DNA from: a virus
Lineage: Duplodnaviria > Heunggongvirae > Uroviricota > Caudoviricetes
Reading direction: 5' to 3' (one strand)
IMG/VR virus record: IMGVR_UViG_2778261692_000005
DNA length: 37,344 bases
Shown: piece after piece, positions 2,648 to 27,175 of the stretch
Numbering within the stretch: the first letter of the stretch is position 1
How the letters are laid out: each line of letters opens with the position of its first letter
Program-made: the position numbers and the translations under genes
Notes under the pieces: generated by a model
Database searches by the model: none
What the model was told of the DNA's origin: nothing
Seen by the model: the letters and a program-made list of their open reading frames with translations, nothing else

Positions 2648-3757
2648 TCACTCTGTTTCCGCTATCCATTCCGGGATTTTTGCCTCAAGCTCAAGCTGCG
2701 TGGTAAAGCCGCTGTTATCAATGGTGTGCTCGGCTTTTGCAATAATCCAGTCCTGATTATCAATCTCGCTTTTAAATCCTGTTACCGTGCCATGCATTTC
2801 GGGGTAGAGTTCTGCGCGTCCACGTGCCAGCGTGATGGAGAATGATGCGGCTCCGCGTTGTAGCTGCTGCCACTTTGCCGCCGCTGCGCGTCTTGCTGCC
2901 TGCTCGTTCTGATAAGTCTTGCGTAACACAAACACATTGCCTTCTGCGCCTTCCATATAATCACCTTCACGGCTGCTGCTTTTCTCCTTTTTGGGTTTTG
3001 GCGGTTTGCGGCGTTTCACGCTGACTTTTTTCTTTTTCCCGTAATTAAGATCAAGCCAGTAGGCGCGTACCCCCGTATACGCCTCGCGGTCAGCAATGCG
3101 GAACTGATGGCGATCGCCGCTGCTGCGTGTAATGGCGAACGAGGGCAACGGCTGGCCCTGTGCGTTCACGCCACCACCTGGCATGATGAATAACAGATTG
3201 CCGCTTTTTACCGTGGTGATTGCGCCCAGCATTTCCGCCATGCGCGTAAGGAAGGACATGTCACTTTCTTCGGTCTGGTCGGCGTGGTCGATTTCGATAT
3301 CCATCAGCATTTCGCTGATTTGCGGTTTCAGACCGTACCGATGAGCGATGGCGGATACCACTCGCTCAACGGTCACATCATGCCAGGACACCTCACGTTT
3401 AACGTTAAATTCATCCCGAAAATCTGCGCTTCTGGCTGAAACCGTCAGCCTGTCCGGCGGTCCTTCGTGAGCGATTTCATCAACAATGTAAGTGCCTTTT
3501 TCTGTCAGCGGTTCGCCTTTCCAGCCAATGAGAACCGTCAGGCGCGCGCCCCGTGGCGGTAGCTGCAACTGACCATCCGCATCATCCAGCGTGATGGTGA
3601 GCTGGTCCGCTTCAAATCCCCGGTTGTCGGTCAGTGACAGGCTCATTAGGCGCTCTGCCACGCCGGACAGTGTTTCCCCCTCCGCGAGAATATCAAAATC
3701 CGGCATTTTCACGGGGTCTGTGCTCTGACTGAGCAATTGCATGGTGGTGTCGGTCAT
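2648..3757 (-). CDS. D: tail protein D (late control gene D family)
   Basis: Start placed at MTDTTMQLLSQS (RBS GGAGGGAG upstream) rather than the track ORF start; translation recognised as the gpD family. Confidence 0.88.
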   Translation of the reverse strand: MTDTTMQLLSQSTDPVKMPDFDILAEGETLSGVAERLMSLSLTDNRGFEADQLTITLDDADGQLQLPPRGARLTVLIGWKGEPLTEKGTYIVDEIAHEGPPDRLTVSARSADFRDEFNVKREVSWHDVTVERVVSAIAHRYGLKPQISEMLMDIEIDHADQTEESDMSFLTRMAEMLGAITTVKSGNLLFIMPGGGVNAQGQPLPSFAITRSSGDRHQFRIADREAYTGVRAYWLDLNYGKKKKVSVKRRKPPKPKKEKSSSREGDYMEGAEGNVFVLRKTYQNEQAARRAAAAKWQQLQRGAASFSITLARGRAELYPEMHGTVTGFKSEIDNQDWIIAKAEHTIDNSGFTTQLELEAKIPEWIAETE

Positions 3758-3914
3758 CTGCTCCCTCCCTGTGTGGCATGGTCGCATGTGCGTGCGGAGG
3801 GGGTTACTGCTTTTTGTTGTCGCCGTGGCGGGAGAACGGCGCAGGGGTGAGATTACGCGCGTGGTGGGTGATGATTGTTGCCGAATCATTTAACGGATAC
3901 AAGGGGCTGAAGCT
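3758..3914. promoter_or_regulatory. divergent late promoter region between D (-) and FI (+)
   Basis: 157-bp intergenic region between divergently transcribed late operons; no Ogr TGT-N12-ACA site confidently identified. Confidence 0.35.
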
Positions 3915-5099
3915 ATGAGTGAAACTCGTTTTCATGGTGCCCGTGTTACGGAAAATACCGACCTGGTAACAGCGATTAACGATGTTGATTCCAGCGTTAT
4001 CGGTATCGTGGCAACGGCGGATGATGCGGACGCGAAGTTGTTCCCGCTGAACAAGCCCACACTGCTGACCCGCGTCAATGACGTGCTGGGAAAATGCGGA
4101 ACAACGGGGACGCTTTATCGTGCGCTTAAGGCCATCGCAGACCAGGTGAGCACAAAGGTGATCGTCGTTCGCGTGGCTGAACACAAAGAAGAAGACGAAA
4201 AGACGCAGGATCAACTGGTTATCGGTGGTTCTGAGGATGACGGCAGCTATACGGGGATGTATGCGCTGCTTGTTGCAGAGCAGGATGAAAGCATCGGATA
4301 CCGTCCGCGTATTCTGGCCGCGCCGGAGCTGGACACGGAGGCGGTGACAAAATCCCTGTGCGTGATTGCGGGTAAACTGCGCGCATTTGTGTATGCCTCA
4401 TGTCACGGCTGTAACACGATGGCTGAAGCGATTACCTACCGCCAGAAATTCAACGAACGTGAAGTGATGCTCTTATGGCCGGACTTCATCGCCTACAACC
4501 CGAAAAGTGGCGAAAACGAAACGTTCCCCGCGCCTGCTTATGCGTGCGGCCTTCGTGCGTACATTGACCATGAGCAGGGCTGGCACAAATCGCTGTCCAA
4601 CGTTCCGGTTAAAAATGTGCTGGGGATGTCGAGGCATGTGTTCTGGTCGTTGCAGGCCGAAGACAGCGATGCCAACAGCCTCAACAACAAAGAAATCACG
4701 ACCATTATTCGTCGCAACGGGTTCCGCTTCTGGGGCAACCGCACACCGGAAACGAACGCCTACATTTTTGAGGTGTATACCCGAACCGCACAGGTGCTGG
4801 CTGATTCAATTGCGGAAGCGCAGTTTGAAACCATCGACAGTCCACTGACGCCTGCGAACGTGAAGGATGTTATCAGTGCCATCAGGGCAAAACTGGATTC
4901 ACTGGTGACTGCCGGGAAACTGATTGGCGCGGAGTGCTGGTATGACGTGGTGGATAACAGCACCACGGATTTACGTCAGGGGCGTGTGCGTATTCGCTAC
5001 AAATATACGCCTGTTCCCCCGCTGGAAGACATGGAGCTTTACCAGACGTTTACTGATGAATACTTTGAACCCGCATTTGCGGTGCTGGGAGGTGCCTGA
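3915..5099 (+). CDS. FI: contractile tail sheath protein
   Basis: 394 aa; N-terminus MSETRFHGARVTE...FPLNKPTLLTRVND parallels P2 FI (…HGVQV…FPLNKPVLIT); RBS AAGGGG. Confidence 0.9.
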   Translation: MSETRFHGARVTENTDLVTAINDVDSSVIGIVATADDADAKLFPLNKPTLLTRVNDVLGKCGTTGTLYRALKAIADQVSTKVIVVRVAEHKEEDEKTQDQLVIGGSEDDGSYTGMYALLVAEQDESIGYRPRILAAPELDTEAVTKSLCVIAGKLRAFVYASCHGCNTMAEAITYRQKFNEREVMLLWPDFIAYNPKSGENETFPAPAYACGLRAYIDHEQGWHKSLSNVPVKNVLGMSRHVFWSLQAEDSDANSLNNKEITTIIRRNGFRFWGNRTPETNAYIFEVYTRTAQVLADSIAEAQFETIDSPLTPANVKDVISAIRAKLDSLVTAGKLIGAECWYDVVDNSTTDLRQGRVRIRYKYTPVPPLEDMELYQTFTDEYFEPAFAVLGGA

Positions 5100-5611
5100 T
5101 GGCTGTGCCAAAACATCTTCGCTTTTTTACGCTGTTTGTGGATGGTGAAAACGAAGTGGGTAAGGTGACGTCCGTCACTCTGCCTAAGCTGACGCGCAAA
5201 ACCGACAGCTACCGGGGTGGCGGCATGATGGGGGCGGTAAGTATTGATCTCGGTCTGGACGACTCCGCGCTTGATGCGAGCTTTGTCATGGGGGGCGCAG
5301 TTCGTGAGCTGTTCCTTAAGTATGGCGGCACGATTGACGGCACGCTGCTGCGTTTTGCGGGTGAATACTACACCGATGCAGAAAGCGACCTGTATGAAGT
5401 CGAAATGCGCGGACGCGTGACGGAAATTGATATGGGGGAAGCCAAACAGGGCGAAGCCACATCACACACTTACGCCATTAAAAACACCTACTACAAGCTG
5501 AGTGTTAACGATCGTCCGTTGTGGGAGATTGACCTGCTGAACTTCATTTACCGGAAGGACGGCAAGGACATTGTGCCCGATCGCATCCGTTCCGCGCTTG
5601 GGCTTGGCTGA
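5099..5611 (+). CDS. FII: tail tube protein
   Basis: 170 aa, start overlaps FI stop (TGATG); recognised as the P2 FII tail tube family. Confidence 0.88.
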   Translation: MAVPKHLRFFTLFVDGENEVGKVTSVTLPKLTRKTDSYRGGGMMGAVSIDLGLDDSALDASFVMGGAVRELFLKYGGTIDGTLLRFAGEYYTDAESDLYEVEMRGRVTEIDMGEAKQGEATSHTYAIKNTYYKLSVNDRPLWEIDLLNFIYRKDGKDIVPDRIRSALGLG

Positions 5612-5665
5612 TAAGTAATATGCAGGCGGCGCAGTGCGTCGCCTCTGACTGAAAGGAGTTTCCTG

Positions 5666-6031
5666 ATGAAAGAGACGAAAAACATCGATACCGAAAACAC
5701 GGTAGTTGCTGACACTGTGAAAGAAACCAGTGAGCGTGGCGTAAAACTTACCCAACCAATTGAGCGAGGCGGCGAAAAAATCACGTATGTGGAGATCACC
5801 GGGGCTATTGAGCAGGCTGGATCTCTGCGAGATTTGTCGCTGTCTGATGTGCTGAATCTGAAAGCGGAATCCATGTTTACGCTGCTGTCACGCGTGACAT
5901 CACCGCGACTGGATGAAGTGACGATCAAAAAAATGGCATCCCGTGACTTTATTCAGTTATGTGTGGTTGCCGTAAATTTTTTGAGCGGTGCGGACTCTGG
6001 CGGGAAGAACGAACAGGCGACGGAAGCCTGA
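5666..6031 (+). CDS. E: tail assembly chaperone E
   Basis: 121 aa, RBS AAAGGAG; position between tube and tape measure; contains slippery TTTTTTG near the 3' end. Confidence 0.8.
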   Translation: MKETKNIDTENTVVADTVKETSERGVKLTQPIERGGEKITYVEITGAIEQAGSLRDLSLSDVLNLKAESMFTLLSRVTSPRLDEVTIKKMASRDFIQLCVVAVNFLSGADSGGKNEQATEA

Positions 6032-6195
6032 TCACGGTTGTGTGCTTTGAGCACATAGAAGACTTTGTGGCAGATATTGCCGTTATTTTTAACTGGTCGC
6101 CCGCCGAAATCTTCATGATGACGCCCGGCGAAGTGGTTAGCTGGCGTGAGCGGGCGGCACTTCGCAGCGGGAATGCAGACAATGAAGACTCTTGA
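5666..6195 (+). CDS. tail assembly chaperone E+E' fusion made by programmed -1 frameshift at TTTTTTG (about 5977-5983)
   Basis: The -1 frame ORF 5959-6195 overlaps the E 3' end and continues past the E stop; heptamer T TTT TTG is in the correct phase for a -1 slip. Confidence 0.6.
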
Positions 6196-8989
6196 TATCC
6201 GGGTCGCTTTCAGCGCCGTTGACAGGCTGACCCGGCCTGCCGAAAACGCCCGCCGCCTGATGGGGCAGTTTGGTGACTCCATCCAGCGAACGCAGGGGGC
6301 GATCAAAAATCTCGAGCGTCAGGCGCGTTCATTTGAGCGCGCCCGCGACGCTGTCAGTAAAGCGGATGCGGGTATCGTGAAAGCACGACGCCAGCTTAAC
6401 GCCCTTAATCAGTTACAACGCACGGGTACAGTGCTCAGCGAAAAACAACAAAAGCTGATGCAGCAGTTAAGCACCCGGCTTGAACGCCTGAATGAATCGC
6501 GCACGCGGGAAATTCAGAAAATGCGGGAGCTTGGCGGAGAGCTGAAACGCCACGGCATTTCCCTGACAGGCAGCGATAACACCATCCAGCAGGCCATCAG
6601 ACGCACCGAACAGTACAACAACCAGCTTGAACGCGAACGGCAGGCGCTTGCGCGTGTAACGCGGGCGCGTGAGCGGTATTCGCGCGCGCAGGAAACAGCG
6701 GGAAAACTGAAAACAGGTGGTGCACTGGCAATTGGTGCGGCAGCGGCGGGCGGCTATGCTGCCGGGCGTTTTTTGCAGCCTGCGATCGGGTTCGGCAAAG
6801 AGATGTCCCGCGTTCAGGCACTGACGCGAATCGACCAGAACAGCCCGCAGTTTAAGGCGCTGCGTGAGCAGGCGTTAAAACTTGGCTCTGAAACGCAGTT
6901 CACCGCAGGCGATGCCGCCAGTGGACAGGCATTTCTTGCAATGGCTGGCTTCACTCCGCAGGCCATTCAGGCTGCGCTTCCCGGCGTGCTGAGCATGGCA
7001 ACGGCTGGCGGTATGGATCTCGGCGAGACGGCAGATATTGGCTCAAATATCCTGACGCAGTTCGGCCTTTCTGCTGACCAGATGGACCGGGTCGGTGACA
7101 CACTCACCGCAGCGTTTACCCGTACCAACACTGACCTTCGCGCACTGGGCGAAACCATGAAATATGCAGGTCCGGTGGCGGGTAAGCTGGGAATATCGCT
7201 GGAGCAGGCCGCAGCGATGGCGGGCGTGCTGGCGAATATGGGCATCAGAGGGAGTGATGCCGGGACGGCAATGCGTGCCAGCCTGGCTCGTCTGGCATCA
7301 CCGCCAAAGGCGGCGGCAGAAGCTCTGAAAGAGCTGGGCGTGTCCGTCTCGGATGCCAGGGGCAAAATGCGCCCGATGGAAGATCTGCTGGCTGACCTTT
7401 ATAAAGCTACCCGCAAATACGGGGAAGTTGACCGGGTATCCTTCTTTAAGGACATCGCCGGGGAAGAGGCTTTCACATCGTTTATGGCACTCGTTGATGC
7501 GGCGGGTGACGGTTCCTTACCCAAACTGAGAAAAGAACTTGAGGGCGCACGCGGTGAGGCTGAACGCACGGCAAAGGTTATGGCCGACAACCTTGATGGC
7601 GACCTGAAAAATCTCGACAGCGCATGGGAAGGTCTTCGTATTCGCATCAGTGATCTGGTTGACGGTCCGCTGCGTTCTGTCACGCAGTGGCTAACACGGG
7701 TGGTCTCAAAGGTGACGGTACTGGCGCAGGCCCATCCTGTACTGACGCGCCAGCTACTGATTGCAGGCGGTGCGCTGCTGGCAGTGACTGCAACCGTAGG
7801 CTCGTTGTCGCTTGCTCTTGGTGTGCTTGCTGGCCCGCTGGCAAAACTGCGTCTTGGTTTTTCCCTCCTGACCGGATCAATGAATGCTGTCAGGCTCCTG
7901 CCAGCACTATGGGGAATGGTGACGGGTTCCGTTTCTTTGCTGGGAGGTGCTATCGGGGCGCTGTTCAGTCCGGTTGGTCTTATCGTGGCTGCGCTTGCCG
8001 GAGCTGCCATTCTTATCTGGAAATATTGGGATCCCATCAGGGCATTTTTTGCCGGGGTGTTCAGCGGAATTATGGAAAGGCTGACCCCGTTGCGCGAAAC
8101 CTTTGAACGGTTTGGTCCTGTTTTTGACGCAATCGGAAGCGGGATCAGCCAGGTGTTTAACTGGTTTAAATCGCTGCTGTCACCGATGGAGTCCAGCAAG
8201 GAAACGCTGGATAAATGTACCAGTGCTGGCGAGATATTCGGTAACGTTCTTGGCGGTGCGTTACAGCTTGTTCTGACACCTGCAAAAATGCTGCTGGATA
8301 CGCTGGCGTGGATACTTGAAAAACTTGGCGTCCTTCCGGATGAAGCGGAAAGGGCGCGCAAGAAAATCGAAGACGCACAGCGTGCGGCCATTCTTCAGGA
8401 CAAGGTTGCCTTGCTTCAGGGGGACCTGGCGAAAATCAATCCGCCGAAGCCTGTGGAAAATGGCAATGGCACCGGAGGTGATAAACCCAAAGACAACAAA
8501 CCGCTCACAGACAGCAATACCGGTACACTACGCAGACTCAGCAAAATTGCTGATAACACAGGTAAGCTGGTTGATGAGACGAAAAAACGCATTGGCCCCG
8601 GCGATATTGTCTTTAAGAACCTGCCCCGCGCACTTGCTGTTCGTGGGGAGTGGCAGGAGCGGAAGATTGCGCAGGTCAGTAAGCCTGCCCCCGCAATTAA
8701 TATTACACCCGTGGTCCCGGCTCCGCTGCCTCCGGCGCTGGTCCCTGTTGTTGCGGCCAGCTCCCGCCCGGTGGCGGAGGCTATACGATCTCCAGTGGCA
8801 TCAGTTCCTGTAACTTCCCGTAACCGGGAGCCTGTTGCCTCCGGATTTGGTGGTGAAATTCATGTTCATCTGCATAACGTTGTTACGCAGAATCCCCGCG
8901 AACTGGCGAAACTGGTCGGTGAAATGGTCAGGGCAGAAATGGAACGGCGCGCCCGTGCCGGGCGTGGCAGTTTTTACGATAAAGATTGA
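6182..8989 (+). CDS. T: tail tape measure protein
   Basis: About 940 aa, coiled-coil N-terminal half, Gly/Ala-rich TM-like central segments, located after E/E'. Start uncertain (GTG 6146, ATG 6173 or ATG 6182). Confidence 0.85.
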   Translation: MKTLDIRVAFSAVDRLTRPAENARRLMGQFGDSIQRTQGAIKNLERQARSFERARDAVSKADAGIVKARRQLNALNQLQRTGTVLSEKQQKLMQQLSTRLERLNESRTREIQKMRELGGELKRHGISLTGSDNTIQQAIRRTEQYNNQLERERQALARVTRARERYSRAQETAGKLKTGGALAIGAAAAGGYAAGRFLQPAIGFGKEMSRVQALTRIDQNSPQFKALREQALKLGSETQFTAGDAASGQAFLAMAGFTPQAIQAALPGVLSMATAGGMDLGETADIGSNILTQFGLSADQMDRVGDTLTAAFTRTNTDLRALGETMKYAGPVAGKLGISLEQAAAMAGVLANMGIRGSDAGTAMRASLARLASPPKAAAEALKELGVSVSDARGKMRPMEDLLADLYKATRKYGEVDRVSFFKDIAGEEAFTSFMALVDAAGDGSLPKLRKELEGARGEAERTAKVMADNLDGDLKNLDSAWEGLRIRISDLVDGPLRSVTQWLTRVVSKVTVLAQAHPVLTRQLLIAGGALLAVTATVGSLSLALGVLAGPLAKLRLGFSLLTGSMNAVRLLPALWGMVTGSVSLLGGAIGALFSPVGLIVAALAGAAILIWKYWDPIRAFFAGVFSGIMERLTPLRETFERFGPVFDAIGSGISQVFNWFKSLLSPMESSKETLDKCTSAGEIFGNVLGGALQLVLTPAKMLLDTLAWILEKLGVLPDEAERARKKIEDAQRAAILQDKVALLQGDLAKINPPKPVENGNGTGGDKPKDNKPLTDSNTGTLRRLSKIADNTGKLVDETKKRIGPGDIVFKNLPRALAVRGEWQERKIAQVSKPAPAINITPVVPAPLPPALVPVVAASSRPVAEAIRSPVASVPVTSRNREPVASGFGGEIHVHLHNVVTQNPRELAKLVGEMVRAEMERRARAGRGSFYDKD

Positions 8990-9001
8990 GGAGTCATGGC
9001 C

Positions 9002-9490
9002 ATGATGATGATCTACGGCATGTTTGTTTTTGAGCTGCGCACGCTGCCGCATCAGCAGTTACAGCAAAACAAAAGCTGGCGGCATGTGAAAAATGAACGT
9101 GTTAACCGTTCAGCAAGCTGGCAGTATATCGGTGCAGGTGATGATCGCATCGTGCTTTCCGGCGTGCTTTATCCTGAAATTACAGGTGGCGAAGTGTCGC
9201 TTTCGTTGCTGACCACGCAGGCATATACAGGACGCCCCTGGCCTCTGATTGATGGTGTCGGGCAGATTTACGGCATGTATGTACTGACTGAAACGAATAC
9301 GACCCGTTCCGAGTTTGATCGCTACGGTAAGGCGAAAAAGATAGAATTTTCACTGACTCTTGAACGCTGTGATGAGGATTTGCGGGAGCGCCTGCAATCC
9401 TCATCGTTCAGTGATATGCTGTCCGGCTTCAAAGATAAGGTCACATCATCCCTTAACAGCGCGGCCAGCTCCGTTAAAGGGCTGTTTTGA
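9002..9490 (+). CDS. U: tail protein U
   Basis: Start at third ATG (MMMIYGMFVFELRT, RBS GAGGAG 8 nt upstream) matches the P2 gpU N-terminus MMMVLGMFVF. Confidence 0.85.
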   Translation: MMMIYGMFVFELRTLPHQQLQQNKSWRHVKNERVNRSASWQYIGAGDDRIVLSGVLYPEITGGEVSLSLLTTQAYTGRPWPLIDGVGQIYGMYVLTETNTTRSEFDRYGKAKKIEFSLTLERCDEDLRERLQSSSFSDMLSGFKDKVTSSLNSAASSVKGLF

Positions 9491-9498
9491 TTAACGCA

Positions 9499-9535
9499 AA
9501 ACCGCTAATGGTCAGATTAGCGGTTTTTATTTTCC
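9499..9535 (+). terminator. rho-independent terminator after U, overlapping the invertase 3' end
   Basis: Stem AAACCGCTAAT/ATTAGCGGTTT followed by TTTATTTT. Confidence 0.5.
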
Positions 9536-10116
9536 TGAGTCTGCCTGGTTGTTTCTTCAGCCTGTATATCGCCTACAGGGTGATAACGATAAATCGTCGA
9601 TACACCGATATCGTAAATAATTGCCAACTGTTTCCTGCTGTAGCCATTTTCGATCAACCTCGCTATTTGCTCATGTTGTTCTTTTGTCAACTTCGGGCGA
9701 CGTCCGCCAATGCGTCCCTGTTCGCGTGCAGCTGCCAGTCCAGCCAGGGTTCTCTCAACAATTAATTCACGTTCCATTTCGGCTAAAGCTCCCATGACGT
9801 GAAAAAAGAAACGCCCCATGGGTGTTGATGTGTCAATGCTGTCCGTCAGACTACGGAAATTAACACCTTTTTCCCGCAATTCCTCAATAAGCGTGATCAG
9901 GTGTTTCATACTCCTGCCCAGCCTGTCCAGCTTCCAGACAACCAGCGTATCTCCTTCTGATAGCGTTCTGAGCAGTTTTTTCAATCCCGGTCTGGCTGAT
10001 TTCGTTCCGCTGATTTTATCTTCAAAAATCAGTTCACATCCTGCGCACTCCAGCGCGTTACGCTGCAATTCCGTGTTCTGGTCATTTGTTGACACGCGTA
10101 CATAGCCAATAAGCAT
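9517..10116 (-). CDS. serine recombinase, DNA invertase of the Pin/Gin/Cin/Hin family
   Basis: MLIGYVRVSTNDQNT...LVVWKLDRLGRSMKHL...C-terminal HTH; near-identical in pattern to e14 Pin / Mu Gin; RBS GGGGGA 5 nt upstream of the chosen ATG. Confidence 0.9.
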   Translation of the reverse strand: MLIGYVRVSTNDQNTELQRNALECAGCELIFEDKISGTKSARPGLKKLLRTLSEGDTLVVWKLDRLGRSMKHLITLIEELREKGVNFRSLTDSIDTSTPMGRFFFHVMGALAEMERELIVERTLAGLAAAREQGRIGGRRPKLTKEQHEQIARLIENGYSRKQLAIIYDIGVSTIYRYHPVGDIQAEETTRQTQENKNR

Positions 10117-10171
10117 GAGCATCCCCCTGAATAAAAACCGGGGATGATGCCAGTTAGCCGTAATCTCTGCA

Positions 10172-10197
10172 TTTTCTTAAACGTTGGTTTGGGAGAA
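10172..10197. promoter_or_regulatory. left 26-bp crossover site of the invertible segment (hix/gix-like)
   Basis: TTTTCTTAAACG-TT-GGTTTGGGAGAA; its reverse complement shares TTCTCCCAAACCAA with the right site; half-site pattern resembles hix. Confidence 0.65.
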
Positions 10198-10650
10198 GGC
10201 TCTGCATTACCGGTTGGTGTGCCTGTTCCGTGGCCTTCAGCCACACCACCGACAGGCTGGCTGAAATGCAATGGTGCGGCTTTTTCTGCTGAACAATACC
10301 CGGAACTGGCAAAGGCTTATCCGACAAATAAATTGCCTGATTTACGCGGCGAATTCATTCGTGGCTGGGATGACGGGCGCGGAATTGATACCGGACGTGA
10401 GATGCTTTCATATCAGGAAGGCACTATCGTATCCGGGTTTGATGATAATGATACCGGAGATATCAGTTCACTCAGCTCTACACAATACGGATTTGGTGAC
10501 ACTTTAACCTCTAATCAATGGGCGTCCATAAGTGGCAAAAAGTGGATATTTGATGCATCCAACAAAGGTGCACAAAAATATGACTGGTGGGCTTATGTTT
10601 CAGCTCGCCCGCGCAATATTGCATTTAATTACATCGTGAGGGCCGCCTGA
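10185..10650 (+). CDS. silent alternative tail-fibre C-terminal cassette (H'); expressed only after inversion fuses it to the constant part of H
   Basis: Frame continuous through the crossover site (…NVGLGEGSALPVGVPVPW…); phage tail-collar-type motif PxGWLxCNG…YPxL…LPDLRG. Confidence 0.6.
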
Positions 10651-11252
10651 TGAATAAAGCTGTATTAAATAACGAACTCATTGCCATAAAAGCGGGAGAT
10701 ATTACCGTTTATAATTATGATGGTGAAACGAGGGAATATATTTCCACATCAACCGAATATCTTGCTGTCGGCGTCAGTATCCCGGCATGTTCTTGTCTGG
10801 GGGCACCTGGTACACATAAAACTGGTTATGCAATCTGCCGCTCTGTGGATTTAAATTCATGGGAATATGTACCAGACCATCGCGGTGAAATCGTCTATAG
10901 CACCGAAACGGGAGATGCCAAAGAAATCACATCTCCGGGTGATTACCCTGAAAATACAACCACTATCGCCCCGTTAACGCCATACGATAAATGGGATGGT
11001 GAGAAATGGGTGACGGATACCGAGGCACAGCATAGCGCCGCAGTAGAAGCGGCAGAAGCACAGCGCCAGTCGCTGATTGATGCTGCAATGGCTTCCATTA
11101 GTCTGATTCAGCTGAAATTACAGGCCGGGCGGAAACTGACGCAGGCAGAAACAACCCGGCTTAACGCTGTGCTGGATTACATTGACGCGGTGACGGCAAC
11201 AGATACGAGCACCGCGCCGGATATCAATTGGCCTGCTCCCCCGGAGGCGTAG
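10650..11252 (+). CDS. alternative tail-fibre assembly protein (Tfa')
   Basis: 200 aa, start overlaps the H' stop (TGATG); convergent with the active tfa. Confidence 0.65.
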   Translation: MNKAVLNNELIAIKAGDITVYNYDGETREYISTSTEYLAVGVSIPACSCLGAPGTHKTGYAICRSVDLNSWEYVPDHRGEIVYSTETGDAKEITSPGDYPENTTTIAPLTPYDKWDGEKWVTDTEAQHSAAVEAAEAQRQSLIDAAMASISLIQLKLQAGRKLTQAETTRLNAVLDYIDAVTATDTSTAPDINWPAPPEA

Positions 11253-11640
11253 GCCAGACGGGATTTGATGTATCAACGCGCATCAGCAAGACCCGGTATT
11301 TTTTCCATTCAGATAACGCGGCGGTTTCTTCTGCCGTCGCGATTTCCGCATCAAAAGCATCCTGTCTCCAGACTATTTCCTTATCAGCCATAGAACGCAA
11401 TACCGTTCTTTTCTGTTCAGCCTGAATAATCTGTTGTTCAGCGGAGAGTGGCGGGATATCAATCCACGCAGGATTACCATTTTTATCAGCCCCCAGCGTT
11501 TTGCCTTGTGGCGCTACGCCTGTGTAAATTGCCATTGTTTCATCATCAACATCAACGCCATTTTCAGGCCATGAACCGGCGCTGATATATACCTCTTTTA
11601 GTGCTTCCGGATAGAAAGAGCCTTTATAAAATTTATTCAT
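11224..11640 (-). CDS. tail-fibre assembly protein (gpG/Tfa family), currently expressed orientation
   Basis: Start at MNKFYKG immediately after the H stop; C-terminal region typical of the Tfa family. Confidence 0.75.
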   Translation of the reverse strand: MNKFYKGSFYPEALKEVYISAGSWPENGVDVDDETMAIYTGVAPQGKTLGADKNGNPAWIDIPPLSAEQQIIQAEQKRTVLRSMADKEIVWRQDAFDAEIATAEETAALSEWKKYRVLLMRVDTSNPVWPTPPGEQAN

Positions 11641-11642
11641 TC

Positions 11643-13244
11643 TTAATACCCCAGCGCGATAAAACAACAATCTTCGGTGCCCTTTCCGGATGGCGACCAG
11701 TTCTGGATACTGATATGCGTTCTGCTGGCAATACGCACATTCATCGCGGCATTGTAGCCAGATGTTCCACGGTTTCCGGTCGCAAACAAACCTGCATAGG
11801 GAAAAGCAAATGGTAAGGCATATCCAGCATCAACTCCCTTTTGTGTTGCCACCGTTCCCCACTGCAACATAAGTTTCACCGGGTTTCCTGTCGTCGCAAT
11901 GCATGGAATGTAGATGTAGCCATTACCTGACATCATTGACCTGAAGCTGTCTAAATCCAGTAACTTCGAGGCATTATCTGCTCCAACATCTCGTGTTGCG
12001 GCGGTCCCTAACTGGAGCGCATTTCGGAAGGCTGATACATCAGAAATATCAGCTCCATTAGCCGATTTCTGCATAGCTCCGGAGGCTTTATTTATCGTTT
12101 CTCCCAAACCAAGGTAATCAAGAACGCCCTGAGTGCTGGTTTTACCAAGAATGGCACGTCCAACACTTGTCAACGCGGTTAACGCGGCACGATCTGCCCC
12201 TGTAAAATATGGGAGTTTATCTGCTGATGTAGCAAGCTCCGCCAGCGCCGTCAGGGTGGCATCCTTCGGTTGCTTACCCGCAAGCGCGTTAGTCATGGTG
12301 GTCGCAAAATTCGGGTCATTGCCCAGCGCCGCAGCCAGTTCGTTCAGCGTGTTCAGTGCATCAGGTGACGAATCTACAAGTGCGGCAATCGCGGCCATAA
12401 CGAAAGCCGTGCTTGCGATCTGGGTACTATTAGTCCCCTGTGGCGCTGTTGGTGTTGTTGGCCTTCCGGTCAGTGCCGGGTTGTTTAATGGTGCTTTCTT
12501 GTTCGTTTCATCCATTACCGCCTTAACAGCTTTTGGTGTCGCTGCCAGCGTTTCAGACGTGCTGTTCGTGGCGCTACTGAGCTGAACAATCCCTTTTTGT
12601 GTAGTGGTGGCGTTCTGGGCGGTATATTTCCCGTTAGCCAGGTCATATGCAGCCTTAACCGCTTTCGGTGTTGCGGCCAGTGTTTCTGATTCACTGTTAA
12701 TTGCACTGCTTAACTGAGTAAAACCTTTTGCGGTCAGCGAGGCGTCCGGGTGACGTCGTGACTGTTCGTGCTCTGATATTTTATCATCCACATATTTGCG
12801 GGTTGCCAGAACCACTGACGGGTCGATTTTCAGCGTGATGGCTTCGGTGTTCGTGACAACCAGAATCATGCGGATAGTCTGGGTGCGTCCACTGCCTTCC
12901 TGTAACTGCGGTTTGTACGTTTCCGGGCAGTTTGCCACCGCAATGAGTACACCTTCATCATCATAAAGACCAATCTCACGGATCCAGAATCCTCCCTCGT
13001 TTTCAGGGATGATTTGCTCCGCAATAATCTGGCTCTGATTGTTAGGGTCAACACTCAGAAGATTCAGCGGTGCAATGCGTTTCTGGTTAATCAGTTTTGT
13101 TTGTGCAGGGTCTGGTGTTGGTAACACACCATTTGCATCACCAACGGCCATTTGCGTCAGATTCAGCTTACTGCCGAGCATCGTCGCGTTAGCCAGTCGT
13201 GCCGCGCCCTGATTAGTCAGAATGGCGTAGTATTTCACTGTCAT
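11643..13244 (-). CDS. H: tail fibre protein H (constant N-terminal part plus currently fused variable C-terminus)
   Basis: 533 aa; long stretches match P2 gpH (…DDKISEHEQSRRHPDASLTAKGFTQLSSA…TSETLAATPKAVK…ALVDSSPDALNTLNELAAALGNDPNF…). Confidence 0.9.
   Translation of the reverse strand: MTVKYYAILTNQGAARLANATMLGSKLNLTQMAVGDANGVLPTPDPAQTKLINQKRIAPLNLLSVDPNNQSQIIAEQIIPENEGGFWIREIGLYDDEGVLIAVANCPETYKPQLQEGSGRTQTIRMILVVTNTEAITLKIDPSVVLATRKYVDDKISEHEQSRRHPDASLTAKGFTQLSSAINSESETLAATPKAVKAAYDLANGKYTAQNATTTQKGIVQLSSATNSTSETLAATPKAVKAVMDETNKKAPLNNPALTGRPTTPTAPQGTNSTQIASTAFVMAAIAALVDSSPDALNTLNELAAALGNDPNFATTMTNALAGKQPKDATLTALAELATSADKLPYFTGADRAALTALTSVGRAILGKTSTQGVLDYLGLGETINKASGAMQKSANGADISDVSAFRNALQLGTAATRDVGADNASKLLDLDSFRSMMSGNGYIYIPCIATTGNPVKLMLQWGTVATQKGVDAGYALPFAFPYAGLFATGNRGTSGYNAAMNVRIASRTHISIQNWSPSGKGTEDCCFIALGY
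12099..12124. promoter_or_regulatory. right 26-bp crossover site of the invertible segment, inside gene H
   Basis: TTCTCCCAAACC-AA-GGTAATCAAGAA, inverted relative to the left site. Confidence 0.65.
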
Positions 13245-24525: not shown

Positions 24526-24541
24526 TGGGGCTGTCCTTTTT
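24511..24541. terminator. bidirectional rho-independent terminator shared by Q (+) and orf174 (-)
   Basis: Stem CAGCCCC/GGGGCTG flanked by A-run and T-run. Confidence 0.55.
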
Positions 24542-25064
24542 ACCAGAGTTGAACCATTTTCTGGGTGCCGTCAGGCTTGAGATTATCAATTTCAGAGAGA
24601 ACGTAATATTGAATGGCTTCACAAACGGTGGTGTAGGGTGAATTACCTTCTTTAAGTGGCACGATATTATTATTAACGCGAACCTGTATTTCATCGTTAT
24701 ACATTGCGATCGAAACAGGAGTGTGCACGAACGCGACTTCGCCAGGTGTGTCGTCAACCACCGTTTCAATACTAAAAGTCAGTTTTCGCTCATCATTGCT
24801 GCCTCGTGCTTTGGGGGTAGCGGCAGGGATCTGGGATAAAGGCATTCTGCGAAATCCTTCGGCTGCTTCCAGTCCACATGAAACGTAATGCTGGCGATTA
24901 CCGTCGCTATCTGTCCAGGTCTGTGATGGCAGCTCCAGCGAGATTTCATAAGCATCAACAATGCCCTGGGCAAGGCGTACAAGCGGGGTCAGATCTTCAT
25001 TGCGGCGAAAGCTCTCCTTTACCTGCTCCCGTTTTTCTCTTAACTGCTTGTAATTAATGACCAT
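24540..25064 (-). CDS. hypothetical cargo protein (174 aa), no family recognised
   Basis: Start at MVINYKQLREK with RBS GGAGG 7 nt upstream; AT-rich codon usage by eye; convergent with Q. Confidence 0.6.
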   Translation of the reverse strand: MVINYKQLREKREQVKESFRRNEDLTPLVRLAQGIVDAYEISLELPSQTWTDSDGNRQHYVSCGLEAAEGFRRMPLSQIPAATPKARGSNDERKLTFSIETVVDDTPGEVAFVHTPVSIAMYNDEIQVRVNNNIVPLKEGNSPYTTVCEAIQYYVLSEIDNLKPDGTQKMVQLW

Positions 25065-25103
25065 AAGACAGCCTCCATTGATTTCTTTGCTCGTATTTTG
25101 CAC

Positions 25104-25650
25104 TTATGAAGTATGGTCGGCAAGGTGCCGTATCGCTGACGCGCTTCGCTTGTCTGCTGCTTCGCCGGGGCATAAAAAATTTATGCCCCGACTCTCCAGC
25201 TCCTGTATCAATCAGATAATTTCACGACGCCTTCCAGCTTATTGTCATCATCGACGGTCAGGCTCTTACGCAATCCCGCCGTGCTGACTGCATGTTCTCG
25301 TCGCCTCAGTGCGATTTTGACGGCCTTATCAGTCACCCCATCAAATCAAAAGCCCTCACGTATTTTTCACGCTCAGCGTGAGAAAGACAGCCATTCCGTT
25401 GTGTCGCTGCGACATCGTTCAGGGAATGCTGTTTACCCCCTGAAACGCGGGCTGTTCCCCCGTCACCTGCGCGCAGAAAAAGCGCGTTTTTTTGTGCGCG
25501 CACGGATCCTTGACGGATCCAGCCGCCATGCGGGCCGGAAGGGTAAAAAGTCGTTCAAAAAAATTGTGCAAATTTGTGCACTTTTGTGCAAACAAAAAGC
25601 GCCCCTGAGGCGCTTTAGTGTTTTATAGGTTGTGTATATTGGCTGGGTCC
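25104..25650. other. ~550-bp non-coding region; candidate cos/packaging or regulatory region
   Basis: No credible ORF; contains hairpin GGGGCATAAA/TTTATGCCCC (25167-25189), palindromic decamers CTGCGCGCAG and GTGCGCGCAC (about 25467-25503), tandem CGGATCC (25503-25520) and three TGTGCA motifs at exact 10-bp spacing (25565-25590). Confidence 0.4.
25590..25616 (-). terminator. rho-independent terminator of the minus-strand cargo operon
   Basis: Stem AGCGCC/GGCGCT followed on the minus strand by TTTTTGTTTG, directly after the orf87 stop. Confidence 0.6.
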
Positions 25651-25914
25651 TTATCCTGCTGTGCTTTCAACTGATGAGGGGAACAAAATCTTTTCATCAA
25701 ACCCTGCATTCATATCATGGACAGCAACACACCAATCCATTGACGAACGATTATCAAGAGCCTCCATGATTTCATCCATGCGGCGTAGGTCATACAGGTA
25801 AATGTTTTTATCGCCAATGGTGTAAAAACCAATTTTTCTCGGTGACGGGCAGCGATCAAGAACGTTCTGTAATTCGCTCAACCATGCCTGTTCCTTTTTT
25901 GTCAAAGTTGCCAT
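25651..25914 (-). CDS. hypothetical protein (87 aa), last gene of the parM operon
   Basis: RBS AAGGAG overlapping the upstream gene's last codons; starts MATLTKKEQ; no family recognised. Confidence 0.55.
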   Translation of the reverse strand: MATLTKKEQAWLSELQNVLDRCPSPRKIGFYTIGDKNIYLYDLRRMDEIMEALDNRSSMDWCVAVHDMNAGFDEKILFPSSVESTAG

Positions 25915-25915
25915 A

Positions 25916-26407
25916 TCACTCTCCTTTGATGCGAATGCCAGTGGTACTCATTCTCCTGATTTCCCAGAGCACACGAGGAACACCACCGTCTCCGACCGGA
26001 TCGCGTTTACTCCGCAGGGCGACGCTTGATTCCGCCCAGCTTTTTCTTGGAGGAAGCTCTTTCACACGAACAAAACCAGCTGCGCGGAGAGATGCTCCTG
26101 ATTCATCTGCCCGGGTGTACGTAATACAACGTTGATAACCCATAGCCTTTGCTGCCCGCCAGACAGCACCATAAAGCGCGCTGTTAGCGTTGCGTTCTCC
26201 TGTGGTACATGTGCGATTTACTTCAAGCGTTAATCCATCGTCCAAATGTCGTGCAACAGGTCGACCGGCTGTCGCCACACCTATCAATTCTCCGGCATCA
26301 TTTCTCAGACCAATGCTGAATTTATGCCCCACCGGGGGTTTATTGTGTCGGTGATGTCTGGATATAAATGCCTTCGCAACACGAAGAGTAACCGGTGAAA
26401 TTTGCAT
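25916..26407 (-). CDS. hypothetical protein (about 163 aa); weak GNAT-like pattern at most
   Basis: Start taken at MQISPVTLRV (2 nt after upstream stop); C-terminus ends …GIRIKGE like the preceding gene; no family confidently recognised. Confidence 0.55.
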   Translation of the reverse strand: MQISPVTLRVAKAFISRHHRHNKPPVGHKFSIGLRNDAGELIGVATAGRPVARHLDDGLTLEVNRTCTTGERNANSALYGAVWRAAKAMGYQRCITYTRADESGASLRAAGFVRVKELPPRKSWAESSVALRSKRDPVGDGGVPRVLWEIRRMSTTGIRIKGE

Positions 26408-26409
26408 TC

Positions 26410-26841
26410 TCACTCGCCTTTGATGCCAATGTTTACAGCCTGGCAAGCCTCTTTGAGCACCCAGTCAACAGCGTCTTTCCATGCTCCGGTTTCGGCTGGC
26501 GGATTCTCACTCTTTACCAGTTCATAGAAACGCACTGCGTTTACCAGTCCTCTTGGTACTGCTGGCGCTGGCGGCTCTCGATACATAGGGATAACACGTC
26601 GCGGGTCCGCGTATTTATCTGGCGGACACTGAAATATCTCACCGAAACCATACTGCTTGACATCACGCAGTTCCTCATCATCAGTCCATGCAACAGGTTT
26701 CGCTTCCAGCGATGTGAGTGCGATTTTCAGTGCGATTAACATATTGTGATCGTTTTCATCAAGGCCAAACGGGATGTCTTCACGACACGATTCAAGGTCT
26801 GCAATTTTGCGTTGTAACCATTTTTTGGGGATAGTTGCCAT
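26410..26841 (-). CDS. hypothetical protein (143 aa)
   Basis: RBS AGGAGAGGAG 5 nt upstream; starts MATIPKKW; ends …NIGIKGE; no family recognised. Confidence 0.55.
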   Translation of the reverse strand: MATIPKKWLQRKIADLESCREDIPFGLDENDHNMLIALKIALTSLEAKPVAWTDDEELRDVKQYGFGEIFQCPPDKYADPRRVIPMYREPPAPAVPRGLVNAVRFYELVKSENPPAETGAWKDAVDWVLKEACQAVNIGIKGE

Positions 26842-26860
26842 AGATGCTCCTCTCCTGTTT

Positions 26861-27175
26861 TCACTCTGGGAAAAATGACTGAATGTTCTTTCTTATCTCG
26901 CTAGTGCTGTGATTGCTTCCGGTGGCAGGTGCGCTGGCATATTTACTCTGAATATTATTCTTGGCTGGCGCAGCTCCTTCTTCCGGCCATTCGGCCAACC
27001 AATAGGCAAATGCAGGATCGCGTTTTATGAGTGCCAGCCCGGCCAGAAAGGCCGCGCGTTGCGCGCGGCTGCGTTCAGAGGCTGGCAGGCTGTCGAGGTA
27101 ATTACACGCCTCCCGTTCACTATTGACGGCGACTGGCTTCAGATAGAAACTTATCCGTCTGGTTGGTGTCGTCAT
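26861..27175 (-). CDS. parR: ParR-like partition adaptor / centromere-binding RHH protein
   Basis: Start at MTTPTRRISFYLKPVAVN…LDSLPASERSRAQRAAFLAGLALIKRDP matches the N-terminal RHH region of plasmid R1 ParR (IAFKLNPDVN…LDSIPQGERSRLNRAALTAGLALYRQDP). Confidence 0.75.
   Translation of the reverse strand: MTTPTRRISFYLKPVAVNSEREACNYLDSLPASERSRAQRAAFLAGLALIKRDPAFAYWLAEWPEEGAAPAKNNIQSKYASAPATGSNHSTSEIRKNIQSFFPE

Follow-up and report, generated by a model that had tools for sequence, protein, structure and literature searches.

The DNA analysed here, a single 37,344-nt stretch (virus record IMGVR_UViG_2778261692_000005, Caudoviricetes) referred to below as the window, carries between positions 9517 and 13244 a serine invertase gene, two inverted 26-bp sites and a tail-fibre gene, H, for which two alternative C-terminal ends are encoded. 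We consider it very probable that these parts, which lie in an apparently complete P2-like prophage of Escherichia coli, make up a Pin-type site-specific inversion switch with two states. An initial annotation of the window had proposed a Pin/Gin-type invertase next to an invertible tail-fibre segment of ~1.9 kb bounded by inverted 26-bp sites. The invertase and both sites were found where it had placed them, with 1,927 bp between the crossover points and 1,901 bp between the sites.

The pin-like DNA invertase gene lies on the minus strand at 9517..10116 and encodes 199 aa. Its open reading frame (ORF) extends over 9517-10122, and an in-frame ATG at 10122, two codons further upstream, would give a protein of 201 aa; the second ATG, at 10116, is the likely start and matches the annotation in relatives. 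Pfam detected a Resolvase domain (residues 5-137, E 1e-51) and an HTH_7 domain (residues 140-182). The protein is 83% identical to PinE of e14 and 73% identical to Mu Gin, and its sequence matched the Gin structures 4m6f and 3uj3 in the PDB with an E of about 1e-92. The catalytic serine is kept, as VRVS(9)T aligns with Gin and PinE (the nucleophile is S9 in Gin and S10 in Hin). The Hin residues that touch Fis and the enhancer, and that are specific to invertases rather than resolvases, are given in PMC3798978 as K47, R/K48, K/R51, Q151, R154 and L155. By the criteria given there, all six are present in the window's invertase (K46, K47, R50, Q150, R153 and L154 in Gin numbering). These comparisons support the assignment of the protein to the Pin/Gin family of small serine recombinases, with a predicted catalytic N-terminus and C-terminal helix-turn-helix, as initially annotated. 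A terminator-like hairpin with a T-run was observed at 10136-10155, on the strand of the invertase and in the gap that separates its start from site 1. Its sequence, TGGCATCATCC..GG TTTT, is partly kept 5' of pin/gin genes in other loci, and the hairpin could insulate the invertase against late read-through or belong to the promoter region of the invertase.

Site 1, the invertase-proximal site, spans 10172..10197, has its crossover dinucleotide at 10184-10185 and reads TTTTCTTAAACG-TT-GGTTTGGGAGAA. Site 2, the distal site, lies within H at 12099..12124 (crossover dinucleotide 12111-12112) and is an inverted copy of site 1; it reads TTCTCCCAAACC-AA-GGTAATCAAGAA, with the reverse complement TTCTTGATTACC-TT-GGTTTGGGAGAA. 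The inner half-sites are identical, and the central dinucleotide of both sites is TT when read in inverted orientation. An inverted-repeat search gave 14 exact nt in common, or 17 nt at 94%. Reference sites were extracted from the K-12 e14 and Mu records for comparison. Site 1 was identical to the invertase-proximal e14 pix site at 25 of 26 positions and site 2 to the other, distal e14 pix site at 21 of 26, and Mu gix was a looser match to both. The sites had been called hix-like; they do align with known invertase sites, and on sequence they are better named pix-type. Both had also been placed on an LGLGE codon stretch, which is correct for site 2 (Y-L-G-L-G-E), whereas the codons at site 1 read N-V-G-L-G-E. 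Site 1 is about 67-68 bp upstream of the invertase start, the same spacing as in e14, and a TTCTCCCAAACCAACGTTTA-type site occupies the same place in related loci from many Enterobacterales. The O157:H7, TOE17, ES4 and 2017.15.02CC relatives have a site 1 identical to that of the window.

An inverted repeat of this kind might arise by chance or from coding similarity, as both arms encode GLGE, and the serine recombinase would then be a resolvase with no connection to the fibre genes. Shuffling the 3.9-kb region 300 times did produce an exact inverted repeat of at least 14 nt in 3 cases (about 1%), and the two arms do lie in similar coding sequence. However, the match to e14 pix covers the full 26 bp, including the halves that are not shared between the two sites. 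When the whole 37-kb window was scanned with a half-site position weight matrix (PWM) built mostly from the sites of other loci, site 1 (31.7 bits) and site 2 (24.8 bits) were the top two hits by a wide margin, the next best scoring 6.1. The sites also coincide with real inversion breakpoints in relatives, as described below, and a chance origin, to which we assign negligible probability, is effectively refuted. The shared 14-mer was found nowhere else in the window even when 2 mismatches were allowed. As this search and the PWM scan gave two credible sites only, a multi-inversion system like the three-site locus of enteropathogenic E. coli (EPEC) was rejected.

The H tail-fibre gene (11643-13244, minus strand) encodes 533 aa. 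Its constant N-terminal part (12113..13244, about 377 aa) carries the Pfam Phage_tail_fib N-terminus, as in P2-type fibres, and Phage_fiber_2 repeats, and is 97.9% identical to the O157 relative in a nucleotide alignment. The variable C-terminal part in the expressed position (11643..12110, minus) has a Gp53-like_C domain at residues 458-533 and is followed by tfa (11224..11640, minus; Caudo_TAP, E 1e-31), which encodes the chaperone of the currently expressed tip. On the plus strand, a silent alternative C-terminal cassette with a Collar domain (10144..10650, E 2e-16) is followed by tfa' (10650..11252, also Caudo_TAP), which encodes the chaperone of the silent cassette. Each alternative tip therefore has its own Caudo_TAP gene inside the segment, in agreement with the initial reading, and the two genes are convergent. 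They overlap tail to tail by 29 bp (11224-11252), and the same 29-bp overlap is found between tfaP and tfaE in e14. Both strands of the overlap encode a conserved C-terminal W-P-x-P-P motif (TGGCCT…AGGCCA). Tfa' is 88% identical to TfaE of e14. The Collar cassette matches e14 StfE over its first ~85 aa and its last 12 aa and is divergent in its central part; no similarity to Mu S' was found. All five ORFs of the module are intact in the window and give full-length domain matches.

Because site 2 lies within H at the Y-L-G-L-G-E codons, inversion replaces the last 152 codons of the gene. When positions 10184-12112 were inverted in silico, H was joined in frame at about codon 380 to the Collar cassette, from 10186 onwards, giving a 532-aa H' in which the 152 codons of the gp53-like tip are exchanged for 151 codons of a Collar-domain tip. 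This bears out the proposal that one site lies in the expressed H gene and the other in an alternative C-terminal cassette on the other strand. The cassette had further been described as promoterless, and a promoter scan found no sigma-70-like site above shuffle expectation 5' of it on the plus strand, a result that agrees with the description and is weak evidence for it. The anatomy of the module, the family of its recombinase and the predicted in-frame fusion are thus established within the window at the level of sequence. In RefSeq, several relatives with a gp53-like cassette in the expressed position have H annotated as fragments or pseudogenes (L001, which is O157:H7 BB24-1, at 3825-5330, and loci L003 and L008). 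The gene is a single 1,635-bp coding sequence in the flipped strain FRIK2455 and is intact in the window.

Both orientations of such a segment are found among relatives. The O157:H7 strains BB24-1 and FRIK2455 share one prophage; its flanks are 100% identical in the two, and its interior of 1,917 bp is inverted in one relative to the other, at 99.9% identity. In both strains the sites are identical to those of the window, the sequences after the shared TTGGTTTGGGAGAA are exchanged between the strains, and the inversion breakpoints fall within the sites. In EPEC E2348/69, coexisting orientations were observed in single-colony cultures by deep sequencing and polymerase chain reaction (Goldberg et al. 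2014, PMC4272514). Table S1 of that paper gives NC_011601.1 1891695-1893703 and 1892127-1893703 as phase-variable intervals, and these coordinates fall inside the EPEC homologue of the window locus (L090), which has three sites and an invertase identical to that of the window at 190 of 199 residues. Inversion at the same sites, both natural and experimentally observed, has thus been shown in relatives whose invertases are 95-97% identical in amino acid sequence. Neither a single fixed orientation nor sites unlike the known ones, the two outcomes that the initial annotation had named as counting against a switch, was what we found.

Inversion could in principle proceed by general (RecA) homologous recombination between the repeats, with the adjacent recombinase having another role. 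The repeats in E2348/69 extend to about 215 bp (PMC4272514), a length over which homologous recombination can act. The repeat shared in the window and in O157:H7, however, is only 14-17 bp, over which RecA would not recombine efficiently. The repeats moreover have the canonical form of 26-bp pix sites and the same core dinucleotide, and the recombinase has 83% identity to PinE, which is a known invertase. We therefore regard a RecA-dependent origin as extremely unlikely, and Pin-type site-specific inversion as the preferred explanation.

The alignment of the window with the O157 relative breaks off and starts again precisely at the edges of the cassettes (at 12096, for example), which shows that the recombination sites double as the borders of mosaic modules. 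The expressed cassette of the window (start ACGATAAATAAAGCC; …GAA ACG ATA AAT AAA GCC…) was found in the silent, invertase-adjacent position in E. coli 2017.15.02CC. Both junction types occur commonly among complete E. coli genomes, invertase|Collar in 919 and H-constant|Collar in 107; these counts do not form a fair orientation ratio, as the former junction is also common to e14-like elements. Of 5,426 complete E. coli genomes, none had an exact copy of the module, whichever orientation was sought. At best, matches covered 88% of the module in the window orientation (two genomes at >=80%, that is at least 80%) and 76% in the flipped orientation (no genome at or above 80%). A like-for-like flip of the exact cassette pair of the window was likewise not found among the 5,426 genomes, and the O157:H7 pair, which has the same sites and different gp53-like alleles, was used instead.

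Inversion by Hin-type recombinases involves an enhancer with two Fis sites about 48 bp apart, and in native hin about 100 bp separate hixL from the proximal Fis site. As the Hin enhancer sequence appears only in a figure of PMC3798978, we used synonymous-site conservation rather than a direct alignment to the published Fis site. Synonymous variation was compared across 30 distinct aligned Pin/Gin-like genes from the window, Mu, e14 and related loci. In an unbiased sliding scan, the two windows of lowest variation were codons 9-12, nearly fixed as TCA ACA AAT GAC, and codons 24-27, nearly fixed as ..GCA GGA TGT. Outside these two patches, codon choice at conserved amino acids is free nearly throughout the gene. 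A distance of 45-49 bp separates the patches (about 10081-10095 and 10032-10047), and about 96 bp lie between the nearer one and the centre of site 1. Together they form a candidate recombinational enhancer at 10032..10095, inside the 5' end of the invertase gene. The codon pattern suggests that a cis element is embedded in the invertase coding sequence where an enhancer would be expected.

By analogy with Hin and Gin, dimers of the invertase would bind the two inverted pix sites, and an invertasome would form on supercoiled DNA from both sites and the Fis-bound enhancer within the 5' end of the invertase gene. Ser9 would then cleave both sites at the central TT/AA dinucleotide, and a single 180-degree rotation of subunits followed by religation would invert the 1,927-bp segment. 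Such an inversion would swap the tip of H and, together with it, bring the matching chaperone gene into the late operon. On the same analogy, the switch of the window would need Fis from the host and negatively supercoiled DNA.

Several points weigh against this interpretation. Only one orientation is visible in the single sequence of the window, and the outer half of site 2, GGTAATCAAGAA, is weak against the half-site consensus (6.2 bits). The enhancer is assigned from codon conservation only, and its second patch, GCGCAGGATGTGAAC, is not obviously a good Fis site, being a poor match to the Fis consensus. A prophage with the same backbone and attachment site (L091, NZ_CM176498.1, 9002-13462, corresponding to 8996-13244 of the window) is without the invertase module; a gene with an LbetaH domain, a single tfa gene and a fibre of 885 aa follow its gpU. 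By this comparison of sequences, the switch is an exchangeable and dispensable module in this phage lineage. The two tips differ in fold by Pfam (Gp53-like_C versus Collar), and different host ranges or receptor specificities are predicted for them.

The first two of these points bear on the possibility of a frozen switch, in which the module is intact in sequence and no longer inverts in this strain, the orientation seen in the window being fixed. The invertase might for example be unexpressed, site 2 too weak or the prophage defective. The single orientation and the 6.2-bit outer half-site are consistent with such a state, as are the fragmentation of H in some relatives and the ratio at related EPEC loci, which suggests slow flipping: P2-like loci stand at about 90:10 in single-colony cultures, compared with about 51:49 for e14 (PMC4272514). 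On the other hand, the five ORFs are intact in the window, the catalytic and regulatory residues of the invertase are kept, and the sites are identical to those inverted across in O157:H7 and nearly so to those of EPEC. The outer half GGTAATCAAGAA of site 2, though weak, is identical in relatives that invert. We therefore think a frozen switch improbable and infer that the copy in the window is active as a two-state inversion switch.

Since the inner half-sites are identical, the forward and reverse reactions should be equivalent, so the 90:10 skew in EPEC may come from slow flipping and not from a biased equilibrium. The EPEC locus at 1.89 Mb has the same weak outer half-site, TTCTTGATTACC, as the window. 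It is conceivable, though on balance we doubt it, that the ~70 divergent central residues of the Collar tip and the gp53-like tip form an uncharacterised receptor pair, and that the weak site in H slows flipping so that the ratio is ~90:10 and not ~50:50. If the slow-flipping view is true, the sequence of the site would set the bet-hedging ratio; both proposals would be refinements of a known system and not a new one. The orientation of the segment would decide which fibre tip is carried by any induced particles, and so probably their host range. In E. coli genomes the switch also gives rise to apparent differences between assemblies and to fragmented annotations of a "phage tail protein", and such switches can be recognised from a reading of the raw sequence.

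The prophage is integrated beside pgsA-glyW-cysT-leuZ, and its flank (pgsA, tRNA-Gly, -Cys and -Leu) is that of E. coli at 99.8% identity. It is apparently complete, from ogr and D through to the integrase. The tail block FI-FII-E-E'-T-U (3915-9490, plus; with 2648-3889, minus, and 9490-9527) is inverted relative to the order in P2 and pro483; in pro483, H, tfa, the cassettes, the invertase, FI..U and D all run in one direction. As a consequence, gpU (stop at 9490) and the invertase (stop at 9517) end facing each other at a hairpin (9498-9527), and D and FI point away from each other. This arrangement is common to all E. coli relatives that were fetched. The invertase was rejected as the maker of the inverted FI-U block, as no pix-like site and no inverted repeat of more than 9 nt was found at the block ends. 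At the left end of the prophage, by the tRNA-Leu attachment region, lies an ogr/Delta-like zinc-finger gene (2345-2605), and a Hok/Gef-family toxin gene, annotated in relatives, was placed at 2015-2155 by alignment to L091. A cargo region between the portal gene and a parM-like gene (24540-27030) differs from the O157 relative. The ORFs of this region gave no Pfam match apart from one hit below threshold, in which an ORF at 25916-26446 (minus, 176 aa) weakly matched the Mom family of DNA modification (E 1e-4; 22.4 bits, where the cut-off is 27.1).

Published work already covers this kind of system (e14 P, Mu G, P1 C), its type of site and the behaviour of the lineage. Since the family and its sites are described, as is the way near-identical loci behave, the locus opens no new question; only its particular combination of two cassette alleles was absent as a unit from the 5,426 complete E. 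coli genomes. The closest described system is the P-segment/PinE system of e14 in E. coli K-12 (Plasterk and van de Putte 1985, cited in PMC4272514). The window resembles it in the invertase (83% identical), in the proximal (25/26) and distal (21/26) sites, in tfa' (88% to TfaE), in the first ~85 aa of the Collar-type cassette, in the site-to-invertase spacing and in the 29-bp tfa overlap. The element of the window is a P2-like prophage that appears complete, whereas e14 is a defective remnant of lambdoid type. The second cassette of the window also differs, being a gp53-like tip with a chaperone unrelated to TfaP, and the outer half of the distal site is not the same. The EPEC E2348/69 locus shares with the window its backbone and the order tape measure, gpU, invertase, cassettes, H, I and J, an invertase with 190/199 residues identical, and a distal site that is the same but for one base (TTCTTGATTACCTTGGTTTGGGGGAA); phase variation is experimental at 1891695-1893703 (PMC4272514). 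In contrast to the two sites and two variants of the window, this 1.89 Mb locus has three sites and four variants, and the cassette alleles differ.

The G/Gin system of Mu, the C/Cin system of P1 and Salmonella Hin have an invertase of the same family, 26-bp sites with a 2-bp core and the Fis/enhancer-contact residues. In Mu and P1, as in the window, a constant fibre N-terminus is combined with alternative C-termini that each have their own chaperone. Mu differs in its gix rather than pix sites, its 3-kb invertible segment and fibre proteins to which those of the window are unrelated (Mu S'), and Hin flips a promoter, whereas the system of the window flips a coding segment. Escherichia phage pro483 (Peduovirus) has the same order of H, tfa, tfa', Collar cassette and invertase as the window, and the N-termini of the two H proteins are nearly identical. 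The two differ after the invertase: FI..U..D continue in its direction in pro483, whereas the FI-U block of the window runs the other way, so that gpU abuts the invertase.

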